NCBI GenBank assembly: GCA_024679065.1
Contig: JAGIQG010000018.1
Span: 25,358,001-25,422,000 of the forward strand
Origin: Sphyrna mokarran
Taxonomy: Eukaryota
Length of the DNA stretch: 64,000 bases
Reading direction: 5' to 3'
Each line of letters starts with the position of its first letter. Position 1 is the stretch's first letter. The position numbers were made by a program, and so were the translations under genes. This document shows, in pieces, positions 15,213-64,000 of the stretch. Below the pieces are notes generated by a model, which worked only from the letters and a program-made list of their open reading frames with translations, was not told where the DNA came from and searched no databases.

Positions 15213-15829
15213 AATGCTGAGAAGGTACATTCTGAAGCCAGCCCCTCAAGGCCCAGAGCAGCTAACAGATGTCTTGGAAGACCGTTAAATCAGTAGCATT
15301 TAATCACTATCTAGGTGCACTAGAACAGCCAATTGTATCTTCATTAATTTTTCTATATTGTCAACGTGTTGCTTCTGATGGTTTTTGTTATCAGTCTGTA
15401 TTGAATGATATTGGCTCAGGGGACTTTGTGATAGGAAATCTGAAATGGTTGCATTATTAAGGAATGGTGGAAAGTTCATTTCAACTGAATCAAAGCTTTA
15501 CAAAACCATCCCCCTCACTCCATGACGCATGTGGTAGATGTGGTCTCCTTCCTTCTATTCTTCTACCTCTTTACCTTTTCCTTCTCCTGAAATGGCTAAG
15601 TGACTGAGTGCTCAGTATTGCAAAGTTGTGGAGGATTCGACGTTAACATAGAGAACTTCTAAGGATGTAGTCCAGAAATATCTCCTCCCTCAAGCAATCC
15701 TGTCAAAATGTAATGATTTAAAATTAAAATCAAAACCCTGAACATAGTTCCTTACTGTTGTTGACTATTCCTTGATTCAAGGATGACATCCGTCCTAAGT
15801 ATCTGGTCTTAAGTATCTGCCATGGATCT

Positions 15830-23435: not shown

Positions 23436-26269
23436 AACATCCATTTTTCTCTTTTTTTAATGGAAGTTTTTTGCACTATCAAGTGAACATAAGCAACATT
23501 AGATTATTAGAACTCTTTTTCATCTCTAATGACTTCTGAGGTCTGTACAACATGGGGGATACTTGAAGACTGGTTATGGAGGTGGCATACGGGTATGAGG
23601 GGGCATGGGGATGGAGGACATGAGTTGGCATGTAGGTATTGTGAGACTATGCAAGTTGAGCTGTGAGGACTAGACAGTTCAACAGCTTCTTAAACAACAG
23701 GGATCAAGTTCCAGAGGACTAAGGTGGGCCTTCTAACCAGCCCACCTTTGCATCTGTCAGCACCTGTAGCTACCTGGGATCTGATTCTGGGTCAGTGGGA
23801 CTAACTGGATCCCAACCCTGTATCCCTGGAGTAAAAATTAGGTCTAACAGTACCTCAAAACCAAGGCAGGTCTGCTGAATCAGTGCACAGCACAGGGATA
23901 TAGAAATATGTCAATCACTTTGTACAAGTAATCTGTGATAATATCATTCAAAACTCTATTACGTTGAACAAGTTAAAATTGTGTTTGTTTTAACTGCGAA
24001 AGAAAGTTATTGCACTATTTGTGACAGTTGAATTTCCTGAATCGCTCATTAACAATACAACCAATCTTTATCCTGTTCAGTTGTTGATATTGTTAGCAGT
24101 TAATGTCATTCCTTCCATGCTTCATAATCTACAATTTAAATGTTCATGAGATGCTTTGTAGTGTTGTGTATAGATCAGACTTGATTAATGATCGGTTTGA
24201 GTGGTCAACTCAAGTTCTCTCTGTTGAGTCCTCTGAGGAATTATTGAAAATCTTTTTACAGCACATTATATCCACATTAAAGGTATACAGCATAGGTAAA
24301 ACCTCATGATGTAACTAATCCCAAATCCTTTGAAGACAGTCAATTCATGTCAACAGTTGTAATTCTTTATTGAAAACCTATGTCCCTGAAACTACTGTTT
24401 CTGATGCAACTGTTCTTAAATCTTTTGAGGAATAAGCTTTATCATCTGTTATCTTTCCATACCTCTACCATGTTTATTACCTTAGCACTTAAAGTTACAC
24501 TGCAATTTACTCACTGCTGATGTCATTACTGTCACATATTTCTTTATATAAGCACTTTGCAGAACACAGGATAAGGCCATGCTTTTCCCCAATGACATTT
24601 CACACCCATTCTGTTGACATCAGAAAGTATGTTGCTGCAAGATACAAAGTTCAGTTATTAATCTTTTAGCTTTCTTCTGCTATTAAACTGATATCTGCAA
24701 AGTAGGTTAATTCATACTTCAGCCAATAATCTATTGATGATCATTAAGTTGTTGCTGAATTTCTTTAATTGAATTGGTTTATGGAGGATAACTCAAGAGC
24801 AAAGCTATTTACCATAATTAAAGGCTGGACACATATAATTTCTGACCTGCTTTCCCATATAAGATTGGAAATACATCTCATTTCTAGTCACTTGAGAACT
24901 GCTTGCAATCAATGATATAATAAACTTGGGGCTGTGAATGCATGTGGGTTAACTAATGTTTTTAGGGCAACAAGCTCTCCCAGGATAGTTATAAAAAGTT
25001 ATATAACAAGTGATGTTTGCTGATGATCAAATGGCAATTTAGATTTAATGTCAATATCAAGTATCATAAGATCAGGTGCAGTGGTGCATTTAACGTACAG
25101 TAAAATTCCACTATCCTGACACAACGTAATAGCTGCCTGCCAATCTTGTTGGCAATCTTGTTGAGTAAATTGACTCAAATTAATAAGGGGATAAATTAAA
25201 AAGGGTAGTTCTCCAAAGGAGGGGAACCACCCAAAACAAAAGACAAAATGAAAAAGAAACTTAAAACATCAAATCGAAGTGTGATTAAAGGGGTCAGTAA
25301 TGCACCCTAATTCCTGTAGTGGCCAACGAGCACACCTGCCTGCCTGAGTCAGAAAGTTGCATATTGGAGCCTCCTTCCAAGATGTAAGTGATATTTACTT
25401 CCTGCCAATTGAGAGAGGGAGTGTCCCCTTTAAGGGTGCCTATTAAAGATGGAGTCACATCATCAAGACCCCCACTTAAAGAGGGACCTCTTTTAAAGAC
25501 AATCTGACCCTTAGAGATTTATTTTGAAAAGGGACTCAGTCTATTGAGGACCCCTTTTAAATAGGAAGTCTCTCCATCAGGTTCGCTAGAGATAGTCTCA
25601 CCATCAGGACCAAATTTAAAAAGGTGTAACAAATAATTTGTAACTTTGCTCCAAGATGTTGGATTAAATGATTTTTAATATATTTAATCATTGCAGTTGA
25701 GATCATCAACAATCTTGTTCTGAGAGAATTGCATGTCAGTTTATTATCCCCACACAAGTATAATGCCAGATAGTATAAAGCTCCTGGGTTTTTTACAATA
25801 TCCAATGACATTAATTCACTTCATACCTTTGTATAAATGTTTTGCAAACCTTTGTCAGAAATGAGGGTGTGGTGACTCAATTGTGTTTGAAATGCCATTA
25901 CATCATTTACGGCTGGTGTCATCACATTAAAAGATACCTGACGTACTCCCCCAGAGTAACACTGATAATCCTGCTTTCAAAAAGCATAGCTCAGCAAAAT
26001 CACTGGCCCACTTAGTTTTTGAAAGCATAATTCATCAGATTTTTATTAAAAAGACTTTGTCATGGTTTCACAGAGCTCAGGTAGTCTTATTTCCTTTGCT
26101 CTAGACCTTTTCTCGGCTATTGATTTTGGTTGGAATGTGCCTCAAAAACTACAATAGCAACCAACCCGGAATAATATTATTGCTAAACATTATTGTTTTC
26201 CAATCATTGTTCCTTGAAGAAGAGGTCTAATAATGCAAAGAAAGATTTGATAAATAGAACAAAACTTCA

Positions 26270-38450: not shown

Positions 38451-40082
38451 AAGTTTCAAAGACCTTTTTGGAGTGTTTGGAATTACTCATCAGGACATAA
38501 TCTTAAAATCCAGCCCAATGTTGTAATCTCCTGTGCCATGCAGTGCCCCAGGAGAGAAAGCAACCCTCAATGTTTTGTCTCAACATTGAATTGCACAGCA
38601 CCAGACTATGTGCTAACACATTAAAGGTTTGATTTTGACTTTTGGGTGACTAAAATGCAGAAAAAAAAATATAACCTTTTAATCCCAAGGGTTATTCTGA
38701 TTAATATGGAAATCTGTAGTCGTCAACTCTCTCAGAGCATAGTATCTGAAGACAGTATTCTGGTGAATCTATTTTTCACTTCTGTCAAAGCCAGTATTTA
38801 CCTCCTGAGGTGCAGTGCCCAGAACTGAGTGCAATGGTCCAGATGAGGAGTGAGCAGAGTTTAACCAATGCCTCTTCTTAGTATTTCAGCCTCCTTAAGA
38901 CAATAGTTAACATTCTGTCTTCCTATATATGATCCTGATTACATCTGGCATTTGTCCTAAATTGAATAACGAGTCTGTGTCCTGCTTCTGTTTTCAAAAA
39001 AAGACCTGGAGGACATAAACTGCAATAATGGCATCTGTTGCAAAATGCATTGCAAGAAGAAAGTGGTTTCCATGTTACCTAGCCAAATGAAATTCAACCA
39101 GTTTGTTTTCTGCTGAGAAGAGCAGCAGTAAAGAAGCTATTAAAAATGTTGCTTCAGGGAGATCAAATATCCCTTTAAACAAGGTGGTTTTGATCTGTTG
39201 ATCTTTCGTGATGTGATTCAGAGAACTCCTGAATAAAATAATAACCATCCACCATCTGCTGTTCATAGGCTGAACTAAAACCCTTTTTCAAACACAATTA
39301 AACATGGTTGGACAATTCTAGCAGGTCAGGCAAATTATTTTCCAATTAGTACGGTACAGTACATGAGGTGATGTTTAGAAAACAGATGGTTAGTCTACTG
39401 ATCTGTGCCCTTCACTGAGATTATACAATGATTACTCTTGCATTGTATGGATTTTAAACCTATTGATATAAAACTGGTAAATGTAGCCAAATTACTTGAG
39501 AACTTCCTCAGAGCCTCTGCTTAAGCAAAAGGGGGATGACAAGTTAAGAGAGTAAAAGTGATCAGCAGCTGTCTCACCTTACTGTCTAGTGCTATGACAC
39601 GCAGTTCATAGCAATATTTTTATTACACCCATACATTATAATAAACATTGAATCACCATCTATGCCAAAAGGCAGCACGACATAGCACCAAACAGAAGAG
39701 AACCCACAGCATCTCTGATCCAGATCTCCAGACTGCACAAAAGGAGATTAAAAGCAGGCAAAGATTACTGTATGTGAAGGTCAGCATGTCCCAGCTGTTG
39801 TTCATAATCACTCTGTTGTTGTTGTTTCTTTTCCTGTCCCAAGTGGTGCACAAGGCAGACTTTCATCAATTTGCATAGCAAGTTTTTACCTCAATAGGTC
39901 TCTAGCTAGCCTGTCACCAGAGGCTTATAGCTTGAGGAGAACCACTCCACACCAAGCGTGGCTGACCAGGGTCTCTCCCATCCTTATTGCATGCCTTTGG
40001 CACATGGGAAAGATTTTGCAGATTGATAGTCAATCTGTTCAATCACTAAGATAAGAGCAAATTACTGCGAGCACTGGAAGCT

Positions 40083-41009: not shown

Positions 41010-41705
41010 AACTGCACCTTGGTTTGTGGCAATTCTAACCTCTAAATCAGAAGGTTATGAGTGCAATCTTCAATCCAGTGATTTTGGCCTATTTACAGGC
41101 TGACATCCCCAAGTGCAATAATGAAGTATACTGCACAGCCAGAAGATCAATATCAATGAGGGAGTGCTGCACTGTTGGCAGGTCAGTGCGGAGGATGTGC
41201 CGCACAGTCTGCGGGTCAGTGCTGAAGAAGTGTCGTACTGTCGACAGACCAATGCTGAGGGAGAGCTGCATTGTCCGAGGATTAGTGCTGAGGGAGTGCT
41301 GCAATGTCAGCGGGTCAGTACAGAGGGAGTGCTGCACACTGTCGGTGGATTAGTGCTGAGGGAGTGCCACACTGTCAGCGGGTTAGTGCTGAGGGAGTGC
41401 CGCACTGTCAGCGAGTCAGTGCTGAGGGAATGCTGCACTGTCACCGAGTCAGTGCAGGGACAGTGCCACACTGTTGGTGGATCAGTGCTGAGGGAGTACT
41501 GACTGTCGGTGGGTCAGTGCAGAGGATGTGCCGCACTGTTGGCAGGTCCATGCAGAGGTGTGCTATATTGTTGGCGGGTCCGTGCAGAGGGAGTGCTGCA
41601 CTGTTGGAGAGTCAGTACTGATGGAGTGCTGCACTGTCAGAGGGCAGTGCTGAAGGAGTGATGGAATGGCAAAAAATTGCTCTTCTAATGAGATATTAAG
41701 CTTTA
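41010..41705 (+). repeat. Deu-domain SINE whose core has expanded into a 33-bp minisatellite (~15 units, ~41150-41660)
   Basis: SINE head (aacctctaaatcagaaggttatgagt...aggctgacat), then tandem cagtgctgagggagtgctgcactgtcagcgggt units, then resumption tcttctaatgagatattaa. Confidence 0.85.
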
Positions 41706-44062: not shown

Positions 44063-44310
44063 GAGGTCTTGTGGCACAGTGGGTCGCACCCCTACCTCTG
44101 AGCCAGAAGCTCCGAGTCCAAATCCCACCCCAGGACTTGATGGCCAAGAAAGGTTTGTTCAAAACAAAGCCAACAAGTTCAGTATCGACCTGCAAAATCC
44201 TTCCAACATGCCAACGGCAGGCAGTACGAGTGAGAGAGACTGCTGGTCAGCCATGCTTGATGCAGGCTACTACCCTTCAATCTAGAATCCTCTGGTAACA
44301 GGCTAGCATC
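44063..44310 (+). mobile_element. tRNA-headed SINE-like element (third family)
   Basis: Box A tggcacagtgg and box B gagtccaaatcc, followed by a distinct body. Confidence 0.55.
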
Positions 44311-44394
44311 TTTTAGGTAAAACGCGTCATTGGAGCAGATAAAAGTTTGCTTTGCGTACCACTAGTGTGGGAAAAGAAACAGCAATAAACAAGA

Positions 44395-44600
44395 GTGGCA
44401 CAGTGGTTAGCACGGTTGCTTCACGGCGTCAGGGATCCAGATTCAATTCCACTTTGGATTACTGTCTGTGTGAATGGCATGTTCTCTCCAAGTCTGCATG
44501 GGTTTCTTCTGAGTGCTCTGATTTCTTCCTACAGTCCAAAGATGTGCAAGTTAAATGGAGTAGCCATGGTAAATGGGCGGAAGAGAAGGGTTCTATGATT
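44395..44600 (+). mobile_element. V-domain (HE1-like) tRNA-SINE
   Basis: gtggcacagtggttagcac...gattcaattcc head; V-domain gtctgtgtgaa...tctgcatgggtttc...tttcttcctacagtccaaagatgtgc. Confidence 0.85.
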
Positions 44601-45425: not shown

Positions 45426-46350
45426 AAGAAGTCTCACAACGCCAGGTTAAAGTCCAATAGGCTTATTTGGTAGCAGAAGCCACTAGTTTTCAAAGCGCTT
45501 CTCCTTCGTCAGGTAAGTGGGAGTTGTGTTCACAAACAGGACATATAAAGACACAAACTCAATTTACAAAAGTATCATTGGAATGCAAGCTTAAAAGGTA
45601 ATCAAGTCTTAAATGTACAGACAAAGTGAGTGGAGAGAGGCTTAAGCATAGGTTACACAGATATATAGTCTCCAGCCAAAATAGTTAGTGAGATTTTGTA
45701 AGCCCAGGTAAGTCATGGGGGTTACAGATAGTGTGACATGGACCTCCTCATGTGTGCAGAACTTGGCTATCAGTCTCTGCTCAGTGACTCTGTGTTGTTG
45801 TGTGTCATGAAGGCCACCTTGGAGAATGTTTACCCGAAGATCAGAGGCCTAATGCCAGCAACTGCTGAAGTGTTCCCCAACAGGAAGAGAACACTCTTGC
45901 CTGGTGATTGTCAAATAGTATTCATTCATTCATTGTCATAGCATCTGCATGGTCTCCTAATGTACCATGCCTCGGGACTTTGTTTCCTACAGCGTATCAG
46001 GTAGACAATGTTGGTCGAGTTGCAAGAGTATGTACTATGTACTAGATGGATGGTGTTCTCATGTGAGATGATGGCATCTGTGTCGATGATCCAGTATGTT
46101 TTGCAGAGGTTGCTGTGGCAGGGTCATGTGGTGTCATGGTCACTGTTCTCCTGAAGGCTCGATAGTTTGCTGCGGGCAATGGTCTGAGGTTGCGCGGTTG
46201 TTTGAAGGCAAGAAGTGGAGTTGTGGGGATGGCCTTGGCAAGATGTTTGTCTTCATCACTGACGTGTTGAAGGCTCCAGAGAAGATGTCATAGCTTCTGT
46301 GCTTCGGGGAAGTACTGGACAATGAAGGGTGTTCTGTCTGCCATTTCCCA
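45426..46350 (-). mobile_element. Penelope-like retroelement 3' part: GIY-YIG endonuclease plus terminal repeat with hammerhead motif
   Basis: Minus strand TYSCNSTNIVYLIRCR...EAWYIxETMQML...ECSLPVGEHF...ASDLRVNILQGGLHDTQQHRVTEQRLIAKF. 3'UTR has ctgacga-aggag-aagcg-cttt-gaaa-actagtg (45481-45512) followed by aataa. Confidence 0.88.
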
Positions 46351-46475: not shown

Positions 46476-47477
46476 AAATCTTGGAATTCTCTTTGGTGGA
46501 TACACAAACTTCAGCAGTTTAGGAAGATGGCTGAGTACCACCTTCTGAAGGGTATTTAGGGATGGGCAACAAATGCTTGATTTGTCAGTGATGCTCACAC
46601 CCCATGAAGGAGTAAAGAAAATAATCACAGAGTCTCAGTGACAGAATATGAACTGTTTGATACAGTCAGATCTTGTAATTCAAGCCTGGCCTCCTCAGTG
46701 GATGGCTTGCTGCTGTATTGATTAGCCGCTCACAAACAGAGCTTCGTGTGATTTACCTTCGTCCATATCTGAATATTTGTAATCCTCTGAGAAAATTAAA
46801 TCAAGGAGCATTTCACACTGACAAGCTATCCATTTCCAAGCTTGGAATTTGTCTCAAATCTGCATATATATAAAAAATATGATGCAGCTGGAGACTGGGA
46901 GAATAATGCTTAAATCTCCTGATATACTGCAGTTATTAATCTTCCTACAGTCCAGTTCAAACATCGATCTGAAGTGCTAACTCTTTCTTTCTTCACAGCT
47001 GCTGTCTGTCCTGCTGAATATTTTCAGCATTCTCTGTTGCATTGCTTTATAAAGAACTAAACCATTTTTGTAAAACTGGCCTTTGTTTGTTTCAATTCTC
47101 TGCTTAATCATTAGCACTGACATTTATTCCATTGGGAATGTTTGTTCAGGGTGGACACTTGCCCCTTGAGTGATGTTTGTCCCGTGGGAAGTGTTTATCC
47201 TGGGAAAATATTTGTCGTGGGAGAATGTTTGCTGCTACTGCCTGCACTAAAGTCTTTCCAACCACTGCAAATTCCACTGTACCTGAGTGTTATTCATGGC
47301 ACGCTTTCTGCTCAGATCCACAGAGCAGCCATGCAATTTCCAGGACATATCTTCCCACCACATCCCTGAGAAAAGAAGGCTTTGCCACTGCACAGGTGGA
47401 AGGGATTCCTGAATCTCCATGATAATAAAAACATAATCTTCTGTGTCTTGAGGGAATTAATCAAATAGAGTAGCTTG

Positions 47478-48290
47478 TTTGATTTGATTTATTGTTGTCA
47501 GATGTATTTGTACAGTGAAAAGATCAAGTTTAGTATCGACGTGCTGTAGTTGGTTGAAGTCATTAGGTTACATTTTAGCTTCATTTGAAGCAATTTTTAA
47601 AAGCAGCATCTCGGCCTTTTGGCTAAGATGCAAAAGAGATCAAACCTTGGAGGAGATGTAATGCCTACTCCAATCAGTTTGGATCATGTAGATCAAGCCC
47701 AAGACAGGAGATGAGAGTTTTGTCTTGTCAGTTTGGATCAGGAATGTCTCATTTGATGAGACTTTGAATTGGACTTGATTTGATTGAATTGAATAAATAA
47801 ATCTAAAAAAAAATTGTTTCTTGTGCGCTATACAGACAAAACATTCATAAAGAAGGAAAGGAGAGAATGCAGAATGTAGTATTACAGTCATAGCTCGAGA
47901 AATATCAACTTAATTATAAGGTAGGTCCATTCAAAAGTTTGATGGCAGCAGGGATGAAGCTGTTCTTGAATCGGTTGGTACATGAGCTCTGACTTTTGTA
48001 TCTTTTTTCTAATGGAAGACGGTGGAAGAGAGAAAGTCTGGGTTGCGTGACATTCTTGATTATACTGGCTGCTTTTCCAAGACAGCGGGAAGTGAAGACA
48101 GAGTCTTTGGATGGGCGGCTGGTTTGCGTGCTGGACTGGGCTTCATTCATGACCTTTTGAAGTTTCTTGGGGTCTTGGCCAGAGCAGGGGTCATATAAGC
48201 TATGATATATCCAGAATGGTGCATCTGTAAAACTTTGTGAGAGTTGTAGTGGACATGCTGAATTTCCTTAGCTTCCTGAGAAAGTAGGAG
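47478..48290 (-). mobile_element. Rex1/Babar LINE 3' end, interrupted by the U2-containing element
   Basis: ORF 47914-48150 SRCLGKAASIIK...HRLPLEKRYKS...TNRFKNSFIPAAIKLLN is the Rex1 C-terminus; (tttga)n tail at 47478-47490. Confidence 0.85.
47520..47812 (+). mobile_element. U2 snRNA-derived short retroposed element (candidate SINEU-like)
   Basis: 47520-47537 matches U2 nt 23-40 at 17/18; 47606-47629 matches U2 nt 4-27 at 23/24; tandem hairpin body; aataaataaatctaaaaaaaa tail. Confidence 0.7.
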
Positions 48291-52749: not shown

Positions 52750-54862
52750 TACTTAAATATAAGCAAATTGTTGACCAGGGACATGGAACATTCTGGAGCA
52801 CAAGACTTCAGGACTACTGCTGGAATATTGTTAGGGTCCACAGACAAAGAACAAAGAACAACATAACACAGGAAATAGGCCCAACAAGCCAGCGCATCAT
52901 TCCAATCCTTCTTCTACCTATAACTTTTGCCTACGCCGCTTGGACTCCACAATAAAGGTGTGCAAATTTAGAGAATTTTATGTGTGCCAGATTGAGGAAG
53001 GTCTAATTTAAGGACAATTTGTTAACACCAAAATTAACACTTTGCGATATGTTGTGCCTTCAGTGTTTCTTAATATTATGTGAAGTAAATTAACTGAAGA
53101 CTGACATCTGTGATGCTGCGACCTTAGAGGAGGCTGAGATGGATCATCCATTTAGCACTTCTGGCTGAAGATTCTTGCAAATACAATTTTGCACTGATGT
53201 ACTGGGCTCCTCCATCATTGAGGATGAATGGTGATGAACAATGAACAACTCAGCCTTCTCTAAAAGTCCCAGCATCACAGATATCAGTCTTCAGTCAATT
53301 TACTCCACATAATATTAAGAAACACTGAAGGCACATCAAAGCGCAAAGTCTATGGACCCTGACAATATTCCAGCAATAGTCCTGAAGTCTTGTGCTCCAG
53401 AGTGTTCCATGCTGCCCCAGAGTTGTTCGTTATTCACCACCATTCACAACTGGATGTGACAAGACTACAGAACTTAGATCTGATCCGTTGGCTGTGGGAT
53501 CGATTAGCTCTGTCTATCATATGTAGCTTTTTGCTGTTTGACATGCATGTAGTCCATATTGTAGCTTCCCCAGGTTAACACCTCATTTTTAGATATGCCT
53601 AATGTTGCTCCTGGCATGTCCTCCTGAACTCTTCATTGAAGCAAGGCTGATTCCCTAGCTTGCTGGTACTGGTAGAGTGAAGGATTTATTAGACTATGAG
53701 GTTACAGAATGTGTTGATCCTGCTGTTGCTGATGGCTTTCAGCATGTCATGCATGAGTAATGTTTGAGTTGCTAGATCAGTTCAAAATATATCTCATTAG
53801 TTTGGCAATTGTTCCACATAACATAAGAGACTTTATCCTCAACGTAAAGACAGGACTTTGTTTCGGCAAAGATTGTGCAGTAGTCCCTGCTATTGATACT
53901 GTCCTTCTGGTATAGGGGTGGCAAGGTGGCATTGTGATTAGCACTGCTGCCTCACAGTGCCAGGGACACAGGTTCGATTCTGGCCTTGAGCGACTGTCTG
54001 TGTGGAGTTTGTGTGGGTTTTCTCCAGGTGCTCTGATTTTCTCCCATGCTCCAAAAATGGGGAGGTTAGGTGGATTAGCTATCATAAATTTTCCCATAGT
54101 GTCCAAATACGTAGGTTAGGGGGATTAGTGAGTAAATATGTGGAGTTAAAGGGATAGGACTTGGGTGGGAATTTTATCAATGCAGGTTCGATGGGCTGAA
54201 TTGTCTCCTTCTACACTGTGAGGATTCAATTGTGGTGATAATCTAAGCCTACTTGTCACATGAATAAATAAACTTTAGCAATTTTAGGACCTGGTAATTA
54301 TCTGGGAGGTTTCCTCAACTACGTTTGATCTGATGATATGGGGTCCAGAATCACTGTTGAGTACTCCCAGTGCAATTCCCTCCCAAGAAATACCTCTGTG
54401 CTAGTACCTCTGCTGGGTCTGTCCTGCCAGTGAGCGAAGACATACCTGGGGTTAGTAAAGGTGATGTCTGGGACATGATCTCTAAGGTATGATTATGTGA
54501 GTATAACTATACCAGGCTGTTGCTTGACTCAATGGGACAGCTCTGCCAATTTTGGTACAAGCCCAGATATTGTAAAGGATTGACAGGGTTTGGTTTGCCA
54601 TTATCATTACTGTGAAGAAGAGGATGCTGAGTGGTCCATCCAGTTTCAGTCCTTAGAGGCTTCGCAGCATAGCTGAGCAGCTTGCTACACGTCAACCACA
54701 TTGGCGTGGGACTAGATTCATATATAAAAAACAATGGTAAACCAGATGGGTTTTTAACAACAATCATCAATGATTTTATGGCCATCATTTGAGTTTTAAT
54801 TCCATATTTTTATTGCATATAAATTCCACCATGGGTCCCCAGAGCATTATGCCACCACTTCC
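52750..54862 (-). mobile_element. LINE family B 5' part: tRNA-like head, 5' leader and APE endonuclease start; contains inverted duplications and a nested V-SINE
   Basis: Minus strand head ggggaagtggtggcataatgctctgggg, then the family-B SINE-like body, then PKLAELSH*VKQQPGIVILT (APE N-terminus, ~54490-54560). Confidence 0.7.
53915..54230 (+). mobile_element. V-domain (HE1-like) tRNA-SINE, near full length
   Basis: ggtggcattgtgattagcactgctgcctcacagtgccagggacacaggttcgattc head, V-domain and CR1-type tail. Confidence 0.85.
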
Positions 54863-55912: not shown

Positions 55913-57060
55913 TGTTTTTCCAAAAATATACAATACTCATAGAATTTTTAAAAGTGCATAATTTAATAGATCATATTTGACATTATGTAAAATACAATAT
56001 AGAAACCCTACAATGCAGAAGGAGGCCATTCGACCCATCAAGTCTGCACCAATCACAATTCTACTTAGGCCCCACCTCCACATCCTCACATATTTACTCA
56101 CTAATCTATGCACCTCAAAACTCGTAAGGGGCAGTTTTTTTTAGCACAGCCAATCAACCTAACCTGCACATCTTTGGACTGTGGGAGGAAACCAGAGTAC
56201 CCAGAGGAAACCCACACAGACACGAAGAGAATATGCAAACTCCACACAGACAGTGACCCAAGCCAGAAACTGAACCCAGGTCCCTGGAGCTGTGAAGCAA
56301 CAGTGCTAACTACTATGCTATCGTGATGTCCTAGCCACCCTAATTTAATATAGATTAGTTTATTTCAATTTAGTACAGAAGGTGCCTTACTACACCTGCC
56401 ATTACAAGTTGTATTTACATAGTGCATTTAGATTTCACATCAAACACTCTGTGGGTTTGAACACTGTTTGCAATCTCTTGATAAACTATGGGAGGAGGAT
56501 CTTACATAGTGGCCTTCCTCTATTAAGCCTTTGTGTTGGCTTCCCCAAACTTTAGTACATTACTTAACACATAACCGTGGACCCTGGAATGTGCTGGTCA
56601 GCAGCACTCAGCTGTTGATAGCTCTTTGCAATGGAAAACCAACAAGTTTTGAGCAGACCAAAGAATACTTTTCACTGGGTTGATTGTCTTCCAACAGTGG
56701 TTAATTTTTACCTTTATGTACCTCTCTGAAAACAGCCTGTAGAGCAAAATCCTGCATTATGCAGTTGTAGGGATGAACTTGACAAAAATCCTGCATCAAT
56801 TTCCAGACCTGCTTTGCAAAGACACATTCCAGAAGCAGTTATGTCAAGGCCATGCAGGAAGGATCTGATGGGGAGGATCCTTCTCACCACCAGCTAAGTG
56901 ATGTCTTGGTGGTCATCTGTTCAAGGAGCCATCTGACAGAATCCACCATCTCCTTTCTCCACAGGACTTCAGGATATTTTGTGTGGACTACTGCCTAATT
57001 GATTTATGGTGAGTTTGAGAGAACAAATGTCAGCATAAGGACCTCCAATGAATGAGAAAT
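55913..57060 (-). mobile_element. Tx1-clade non-LTR retrotransposon 3' part with nested V-SINE (~55998-56342, minus)
   Basis: Minus strand LLLECVFAKQVWKL, INHCWKTINPVK, LWSAQNLLVFHCKELSTAECC and VLKFGEANTK motifs; same terminal tatatttttggaaaaa as the 4742 copy. Confidence 0.75.
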
Positions 57061-62949: not shown

Positions 62950-63182
62950 CAGTACAGGGTCAGTACAGATTAAATGCATCCCTACATTGTCCCATTAAAC
63001 ACTTACAGAGCTGGTGCAGTAATGTTTAGATACAATGTGAAATTCCCTTTACACTATCCCATCAAACATTCCCAAGGTGGATGCAACACAGATTAGATAT
63101 GGAGTAAAGCTGTCTTTATATTGCCCCATCAAACATACCTGGACTAAAAGAGAATGGGTTAGACAGAATAAAGCTCCATTAC
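62950..63182 (+). repeat. ~65-bp satellite-like repeat (about 4 units), cut by a CR1 insertion
   Basis: Units ...ttagatac..g..aaa..ccct.tacact.tcccatcaaacat...; same family as 3655-3840. Confidence 0.65.
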
Positions 63183-63185
63183 TCT

Positions 63186-64000
63186 GGGATTCTCTGGGAG
63201 GCAAGAGAGGAGATTGCAGAGCCTCTGGCTCTGATCTTCAGGGCCTCGTTGGTTACAGGTGTGGTTCCGGAGGACTGGAGGATGGCGAATGTGGTCCCAT
63301 TGTTTAAGAAGGGGAAGAGAGACCTTCCTGGGAATTATAGGCCAGTGAGTCTTACTTCTGTGGTGGGCAAGGTATTGGAGAGAATTATTAGGGATAGGAT
63401 TTATAGTTATTTAGAGAGAAATGAATTGATTGGGGATAGTCAGCATGGTTTCGTGAAGGGTAGGTCATGCCTTACTAACCTCATTGAGTTTTTTGAGAAA
63501 GTGACCAGAGAGGTGGATGGGGGTAAGGCGGTTGATGTAGTATATATGGACTTTAGTAAGGCGTTTGATAAGGTGGCCCATGGAAGACTTCTACAGAAAA
63601 TGCAGATGTGTGGAATAGAGGGTGATTTAGCTAATTGGATTAGGAATTGGCTGGCAGATAGAAGACAGAGGGTGGTGGTTGATGGGAGATATTCATCGTG
63701 GAGTTCGGTGACGAGTGGTGTGCCTCAGGGGTCTGTTTTGGGGCCCCTGCTGTTTGTAATTTTTATAAATGATCTGGATGAGGGTATTGAGGGATGGATC
63801 AGTAAATTTGCAGATGATACTAAAGTTGGTGGTGTGGTAGATAGTGAAGAGGGGTGTTTTAGTTTACAGAGTGACTTGGACAAGTTGCAGAGCTGGGCCG
63901 AGAGGTGGCAAATGGAGTTTAATGTGGAAAAGTGTGAGGTAATGCACTTTGGCAGGAACAATAAATGTGTAGAGTATAGGGCTAATGGTAGGGCTCTTAA
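63186..64000 (+). CDS. CR1 LINE ORF2 reverse transcriptase: uninterrupted frame, 5'-truncated, runs off the window end
   Basis: 271 stop-free codons (63186-63998): [17 protein letters not shown]...[16 protein letters not shown]...[13 protein letters not shown]...[14 protein letters not shown]...[11 protein letters not shown]...[14 protein letters not shown]...KFADDTK...[10 protein letters not shown]. Probably absent from the ORF track because no stop falls within the window. Confidence 0.95.

Follow-up and report, generated by a model that had tools for sequence, protein, structure and literature searches.

Short retroposons headed by small nuclear RNA (snRNA) sequence have been described in crocodilians as SINEU-1, -2 and -3, and in the sections of that description cited here they are non-coding, shorter than 500 bp, poly(A)-tailed and derived from U1 or U2 in their 5′ region, with U2 pieces that were added repeatedly, internal oligo-T, variable or absent target duplications, and a proposed Keno-related mobiliser of the Tx1 group (Kojima 2015, PMC4494074). 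The insert reported here, found in a window of 64,000 nucleotides of Sphyrna mokarran (the whole stretch of DNA that was analysed), resembles them in these respects, the mobiliser being in both cases a proposed one. It differs in that its U2 pieces also build hairpins in its body, its host is not a crocodilian, its single copy lies in a Rex1-type untranslated region (UTR) with a U2-like site whereas SINEU targets Mariner-N4_AMi, and it carries A- and B-box-like motifs whereas SINEU is described, in those sections, as lacking anything like a Pol I, II or III promoter (PMC4494074). As it departs from SINEU in the Mariner target and in its promoter-like motifs, and as the comparison is one of descriptions, we do not file it as SINEU.

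Three other systems bear on the locus. Keno (Tx1 clade) and Utopia insertions have, in the published portions cited, a 3′ flank that begins at U2 nt 39, that is, a junction at U2 38/39 (PMC4640811, PMC6136364), and reptile Utopia shows relaxed, off-target insertion (PMC4640811). The insert may have its 3′ junction at the corresponding position of a U2-like site, and would then, like reptile Utopia, lie off target; Keno and Utopia encode a reverse transcriptase (RT) and an endonuclease, while the insert has no open reading frame, measures 290 nt and sits in a U2-like stretch rather than in a U2 gene, and it has an A-tail where the reptile Utopia ends drawn in S1 Fig of PMC4640811 are without a long A-run. 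The R2 SIDEs of Drosophila are, in the part of the source cited, short non-autonomous users of a site-specific LINE, co-transcribed with the target RNA gene, and are in this our model for the master locus that we infer; they have a 5′ self-cleaving ribozyme, whereas in the insert neither a ribozyme match nor LINE 5′ or 3′ ends were identified (PMC3414825). Finally, the T+ SINEs B2, Dip, Ves and C share with the insert AATAAA repeats and a short A-tail, and its TCT and its two B-box-like motifs resemble their terminator rudiment (described in B2 copies) and the duplicated B box known in Dip and C (PMC8466645, PMC12984919, in the extracts cited). T+ SINEs are there described as tRNA-derived and as known only from mammals, and the insert is neither, has boxes 7 and 59-60 nt apart and internal T4 runs, and has a TCT shorter than the strict rudiment, TVT with at least two final T (PMC8466645).

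An insertion splitting a LINE 3′ UTR

The insert is a real and unusual U2-built retroposed element of about 290 nt, poly(A)-tailed, on the plus strand at 47520-47813, as read directly and by comparison of its flanks with an uninterrupted relative. Its features and those of its host are as follows, with the basis of each in brackets.

47477-47522, minus strand: left piece of the host Rex1-type LINE, the end of its 3′ UTR and a short microsatellite tail (flank comparison)
47520-47537, plus strand: head, U2 nt 23-40, 17/18, with the mismatch at U2 nt 33 (U2 comparison)
47538-47605, plus strand: unstructured spacer containing a T4 run (47573) and a T5 run (47594), fold z 0.26 (fold, motif positions)
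47606-47631, plus strand: second U2 piece, U2 nt 4-27, 23/24, the match itself being 47606-47629 (U2 comparison, Rfam, fold)
47620-47630, plus strand: Pol III A-box-like 11-mer, made of U2 nt 18-27 and a G of the element's own (pattern scan)
47637-47686, plus strand: hairpin module 1, running from U2 24-30 to U2 48-55; its first 11 nt (47637-47647) are B-box-like (fold, motif scan)
47690-47740, plus strand: hairpin module 2, running from U2 24-31 to U2 44-55 (11/12); its first 11 nt (47690-47700) are B-box-like (fold, motif scan)
47743-47765, plus strand: small hairpin of 7 bp (fold)
47768-47781, plus strand: arm antisense to the U2 24-37-like motif (pairing energies)
47792-47813, plus strand: tail, with two overlapping AATAAA (47792, 47796), TCT and A9 (47805-47813) (read directly)
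47814-48288, minus strand: right piece of the host Rex1-type LINE, 3′ UTR and broken RT C-terminus (PF09004, P0002, P0001)

Rex1 is the label that we assume for the flanking LINE and its PF09004-bearing domain. In the right flank PF09004 scores above its cut-off and the RT C-terminus is 73% identical to P0002. The uninterrupted relative is P0001, the translation of such a LINE UTR and the sole phmmer match, which reads KKQ-Y-FSLY; in the window KKQ lies in the right flank and FSLY in the left, and since P0001 has one Tyr between them, about 1 base would have been lost and nothing duplicated, an empty site that is deduced from one protein-level record. Judged from the flanks, this is a true insertion that splits the LINE 3′ UTR with the apparent loss of about 1 nt and no target duplication. 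The last 3 nt of the left LINE piece are common to the U2 head and form a 5′ microhomology; the final A of the A9 may likewise derive from the target. At the DNA level, no second empty site lies within the 64-kb window.

The initial annotation had described an insert of about 290 bp splitting a Rex1 3′ UTR, and its coordinates and spacing hold, the uninterrupted P0001 supporting the split. It had also proposed looking for target duplications, and this copy has none.

U2-derived pieces

The U2 reference was the line of nt 1-75 in S1 Fig of PMC4640811, aligned by eye. Against it, the matches to nt 23-40 and nt 4-27 first reported with one mismatch each were found again at 17/18 and 23/24, separated by 68 nt. 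By chance, the 24-mer match would arise within the insert with a probability of 1e-8, which becomes 4e-6 when the whole window is counted. For the 18-mer of the head the probability is 1.4e-4 at any position of the insert and 5e-7 when it has to stand at the 5′ end; the first 3 head bases could be those of the flank, and the 15-mer that is then left gives 6e-3 (any position) or 2e-5 (5′ end). The U2 matches of the insert far exceed chance. The head ends at U2 nt 40, 2 nt beyond the Keno/Utopia cut position. The initial annotation spoke of a doubled U2 head, which is right as to these two pieces and understates the rest: U2-like pieces occur at four places in the insert, together with an antisense arm.

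With Rfam, only U2 model positions 7-26 are recognised in the insert, at 19.5 bits against a gathering score of 46 (E 0.25 and 0.029 in two runs), and at the gathering level there is no match anywhere in the window. The head is invisible to Rfam, and by the same search the Sm site and the U2 3′ stems are absent from the insert, which agrees with the first view that this is no ordinary U2 pseudogene. Open frames and Pfam reveal in the insert no coding remnant and no RT or endonuclease (APE or RLE) frame.

Several other identities were rejected. A U2 pseudogene, whether full-length or tailless, does not agree with pieces out of order, no target duplication and an Rfam score below the cut-off, and a U2 gene or ordinary pseudogene is ruled out by fragmentary, sub-threshold matches. 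No tRNA was detected, nor any ribozyme family in Rfam at E up to 10, a search that a divergent ribozyme could escape. The reading as a DNA transposon was dropped: the inverted arms do not lie at the ends of the insert, there is a tail beyond them, and all 4 non-Watson-Crick positions between head and arm are G-U on the plus strand.

At 47592-47600, 5 nt 5′ of the stem I hairpin, there is an unpaired Sm-site-like U-run, one base off the consensus. The end of the spacer (47570-47602) looks by eye like the AT-rich 3′ ends of turtle Utopia families as drawn in S1 Fig of PMC4640811, yet it is followed by U2 4-27 and not by U2 39 onward.

The target site

The end of the A-tail falls at the position of U2 38/39, the register of Keno and Utopia insertion, although the locus is a U2-like stretch and not a U2 gene. 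The first 9 nt of the right flank (plus strand, after the A-tail) agree with U2 39-47 at 6/9 (p 0.013). When the four bases before the cut are included, one of them deduced from P0001, the empty site agrees with U2 35-47, in the same orientation, at 10/13, or at 9/13 if the Tyr codon of P0001 is TAT; the computed per-position chances are 2e-4 for 10/13 and 1.6e-3 for 9/13, and the window contains 39 sites of 10/13 or better in 128,000 positions. The flank 3′ of the tail is T-rich, unlike the L1 target site, given as TT/AAAA in the part of PMC5322556 cited. This likeness lay outside the initial annotation. Because the site match was spotted post hoc, it is good but not decisive evidence that a U2-preferring endonuclease would have acted off target at a U2-like site.

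Elsewhere in the window, 15798-15810 agrees with the U2 35-47 target motif at 12/13 and is empty.

RNA fold and hairpin modules

The insert is predicted to fold with a z of -3.5, none of 200 shuffles being equally stable, and among 480 window tiles a single one exceeds it in stability once GC is allowed for. A stable fold is likewise predicted for the minus strand (z -3.0); it contains 4 G-U pairs, and the plus-strand fold 13. U2 stem I has been lengthened by two changes from U2 that make new pairs, and its loop is a T4 run.

Modules 1 and 2 have a near-identical lower stem, an identical 1-by-3 internal loop and upper stems that differ by four double changes, so that all 14 of 14 pairs are preserved between them: 9 identical, 4 changed on both sides and 1 changed on one side. 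These compensatory changes point to a selected RNA structure, a conclusion that is suggestive because a shuffle control with two sequences reached the same result in 29 of 500 cases and the structure was chosen from those same two sequences. The occurrence of U2 pieces in order within both hairpins has a joint chance of about 0.002, estimated post hoc. Between these pieces the middle of U2 has been replaced, and it is this middle that contains the cut site; presumably, it also contains the branch-point pairing bases.

The arm pairs with the head at -14.5 kcal/mol (14 consecutive pairs) and with the 5′ strand of module 2 at -14.4; of 1000 random stretches, 17 bind the head no less strongly than the arm does. 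Given that the arm binds module 2 equally well, the head-arm helix was set aside as a proof that the head is a fixed part of the element.

Further copies and the surrounding window

Within the window, blastn and a two-sequence covariance model recovered only modules 1 and 2 themselves, the next hit having E 0.43. An exact 26-mer of the insert had no match in GTDB; among protein sets its translated frames gave none in two word searches and one with phmmer, to the LINE UTR part only; plasmids and phages gave chance-level short matches. These searches have little power, being confined to microbial or protein collections; the LINE itself yielded a single match each time, its RT-end query included. 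The GTDB search gave one Rex1-type locus and no DNA match to the window; that locus, at 1952-2818 of what we call L001 (GTDB contig JARHYK010000036.1), encodes a Rex1-type RT end on a bacterial MAG contig and is most likely eukaryotic contamination.

Searches of the open-access literature listed no U2-derived SINE of cartilaginous fish, although Repbase, Dfam or a repeat library in the supplement of a shark genome paper may already name the element. Term searches returned no shark entry in the text of the 10 supplements of PMC4640811 and, in the searchable text of PMC5499810, no match for snRNA, SINEU or Tx1.

What had been annotated as a SINE-like element stands as retroposed, U2-derived, non-coding, A-tailed and, by the new junction evidence, tied to U2-targeting machinery; as for the family, it is with this one copy a candidate, putatively dispersed and putatively new. 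The Tx1 remnants that the initial annotation placed in the window could not be recovered: two non-exhaustive scans, one for motifs in all six frames and one with Pfam over 147 open frames, the longest among 353 that reach at least 55 aa, gave no Tx1, Keno or Utopia remnant, and for this reason the mobiliser is one that we infer.

The window contains other features of its own. At 52782-53411 a long nested inverted repeat forms its most stable fold, and at 41157-41660 there is a 33-bp minisatellite of about 15 copies. An open RT frame of 297 aa (63108-63998; RVT_1, E 9e-38) reaches the window end and probably belongs to a young CR1-type LINE. On the minus strand, 45700-46120 is a broken frame with a GIY-YIG-like motif and no Pfam match, which we take to be Penelope-like; 24700-25600 is a degraded frame with a FADD motif and neither a Pfam nor an atlas assignment. 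A tRNA-type SINE copy lies at 53908-54230, with related sequence near 39816-40039, 44172-44553 and 55999-56318, and these copies are presumably HE1/V-SINE-like, a likeness by which the host would probably be a cartilaginous fish.

Origin of the element

The origin that we favour, with moderate confidence, is that the insert would be a non-autonomous, SINEU-like retroposon, present as a 5′-truncated copy and mobilised by Keno-like machinery. Its source would have been a short, folded, non-autonomous RNA, a mosaic of pieces of the U2 5′ end. The master would most likely sit inside a U2 gene and be read from the upstream promoter of that gene, its head being the first 40 nt or so of the target; a head that ends at the cut site is best explained by such a position, for which the R2 SIDEs are the model. 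A non-LTR element with an endonuclease preferring U2 38/39 (Keno-like Tx1, with Utopia less likely) would have reverse-transcribed the A-tailed RNA on landing at an off-target U2-like site in the Rex1 3′ UTR, and synthesis of the cDNA would have ended within the U2 head, the 3-nt microhomology serving to join it to the flank. The SINEU elements introduced above are a precedent as regards repeated U2 pieces, poly(A), duplications that vary or are absent, and a Keno-related mobiliser. Against this origin stand the searches described above, of little power, that gave no second copy, and the two scans of the window that gave no Keno, Tx1 or Utopia sequence. In addition, the downstream 200 nt or so may perhaps act as a Pol III unit through U2-derived A and B boxes.

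It is also possible, if less readily accepted, that the insert is a true Pol III SINE with a unit of about 47603-47813, starting where U2 nt 1 would fall. This would alter the transcription step of the favoured explanation and be compatible with its insertion step. The duplication would have spaced out overlapping near-boxes of U2, which single changes completed; the RNA would end at a TCTTT-type terminator and be polyadenylated as in T+ SINEs, and the upstream 83 nt, which contain T4 and T5 runs, would come from a template jump or from read-through. In U2 itself an A-box-like stretch (nt 18-28) and a B-box-like stretch (nt 24-34) overlap, each one base short, and in the insert the two are separated and both missing bases supplied, although the G that completes the A box also lengthens stem I. 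Such motifs lay outside the initial annotation, which had expected an upstream snRNA promoter.

The B-box-like 11-mers start at 47637 and 47690, 7 and 59-60 nt after the A box, and account for 2 of the 7 that the window holds. With the usual box consensus patterns and an A-B range of 25-65 nt that was fixed after the gap of 59-60 nt had been seen, a pair such as that of 47620 and 47690 occurs in 2 of 868 window tiles, the other being a tRNA-type SINE whose A box is probably a chance match, and in 3 of 20,000 shuffles of the insert (15 of 20,000 with a looser 9-base box). The shuffles overstate the case because U2 supplies most box letters for free, and given a U2 origin our own rough estimate of the chance is 0.004-0.02. 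The published A-B spacing is 30-40 bp (PMC8466645, PMC12984919, in the extracts cited). The presumed unit folds without the head (z -2.4), and the TCT before its A-run resembles the B2-type rudiment, TCT1-3 preceding 3 of the 69 A-runs of the window, that of the insert included. On the other side stand the internal T4 runs at 47617 (about +15 of the presumed unit) and 47718, as TTTT stops from 65% (B2) to about 95% (tRNA gene) of Pol III transcripts in the figures cited from PMC8466645, the gaps of 7 and 59-60 nt, which fall outside the published spacing, the T4 and T5 runs in the 83 nt upstream of the presumed start, and also the mammalian and tRNA-derived character of the known T+ SINEs.

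Rather unlikely, in our judgement, is that the insert represents the 3′-terminal 290 nt of a Keno-like LINE that is itself autonomous and has U2 pieces and hairpins in its 3′ UTR. Most LINE copies are short, 5′-truncated ends, and the A-tail, the lack of duplication, the U2-like target and the structured RNA would all fit, as would the lack of a demonstrated natural 5′ end; moreover, a U2 amplicon from fish agreed over much of its length with a Keno entry of Repbase (PMC6136364, in the passage cited). However, the copy would have to stop exactly within the U2 piece that ends at the cut site, a coding remnant is absent, and the A and B boxes would be left unexplained.

Still less probable is a one-off chimeric retrocopy, without any family, for which the reverse transcriptase would have switched templates between U2 RNA and an A-tailed RNA of other origin. 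Jumps of this kind to snRNAs are on record for R2, L1 and SINEU-2 in the sections cited of PMC4494074 and PMC3414825, and the searches gave no further copy. Yet U2-like sequence at four places, two stem-lengthening changes and compensated duplicate hairpins need a longer history, even if the head alone could nonetheless be a fresh jump.

Very improbable is a source among the non-coding RNAs of the host that bind U2, for example a modification guide that was retrocopied. Compared by eye, the arm could pair with U2 24-37 at all but one of 14 positions, and it is flanked by TGATGA at 47754 and TTGA at 47780 like C′ and D boxes (47754-47783), for which the +5 position would fall on U2 A30, a residue that we take to be 2′-O-methylated; but no Rfam guide family appears at E up to 10 save a chance-level U8 (13.9 bits against a cut-off of 41), the insert has no CTGA, the C′-like motif lies inside a stem, and guide RNAs are not expected to carry sense U2 pieces.

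To return to the favoured origin and the Pol III unit that may accompany it, their union in a single family of cartilaginous fish, a SINE with a working internal Pol III promoter made from U2, T+-like polyadenylation and insertion by Keno machinery, is a proposal that we think doubtful.

Significance

If the insert were a mere LINE end, or were already in Repbase or Dfam, its significance would shrink to that of a curated detail. If the proposal joining Pol III and Keno is true, it would explain the repeated addition of U2 heads in snRNA-derived SINEs, and the element would be the first known T+-type SINE in a non-mammal and also the first of other than tRNA origin.

The part of the SINEU paper cited here leaves open by what means SINEs with an snRNA head are transcribed (PMC4494074), since U1 and U2 are without an internal promoter. 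To this the insert offers two testable answers: (i) co-transcription from a parasitised U2 gene, or (ii) an internal Pol III promoter made from spaced-out U2 near-boxes. It would also extend snRNA-derived SINEs beyond crocodilians, and would give a retrotransposon specific to U2 a short, non-autonomous substrate of the kind that R2 has in the SIDEs.
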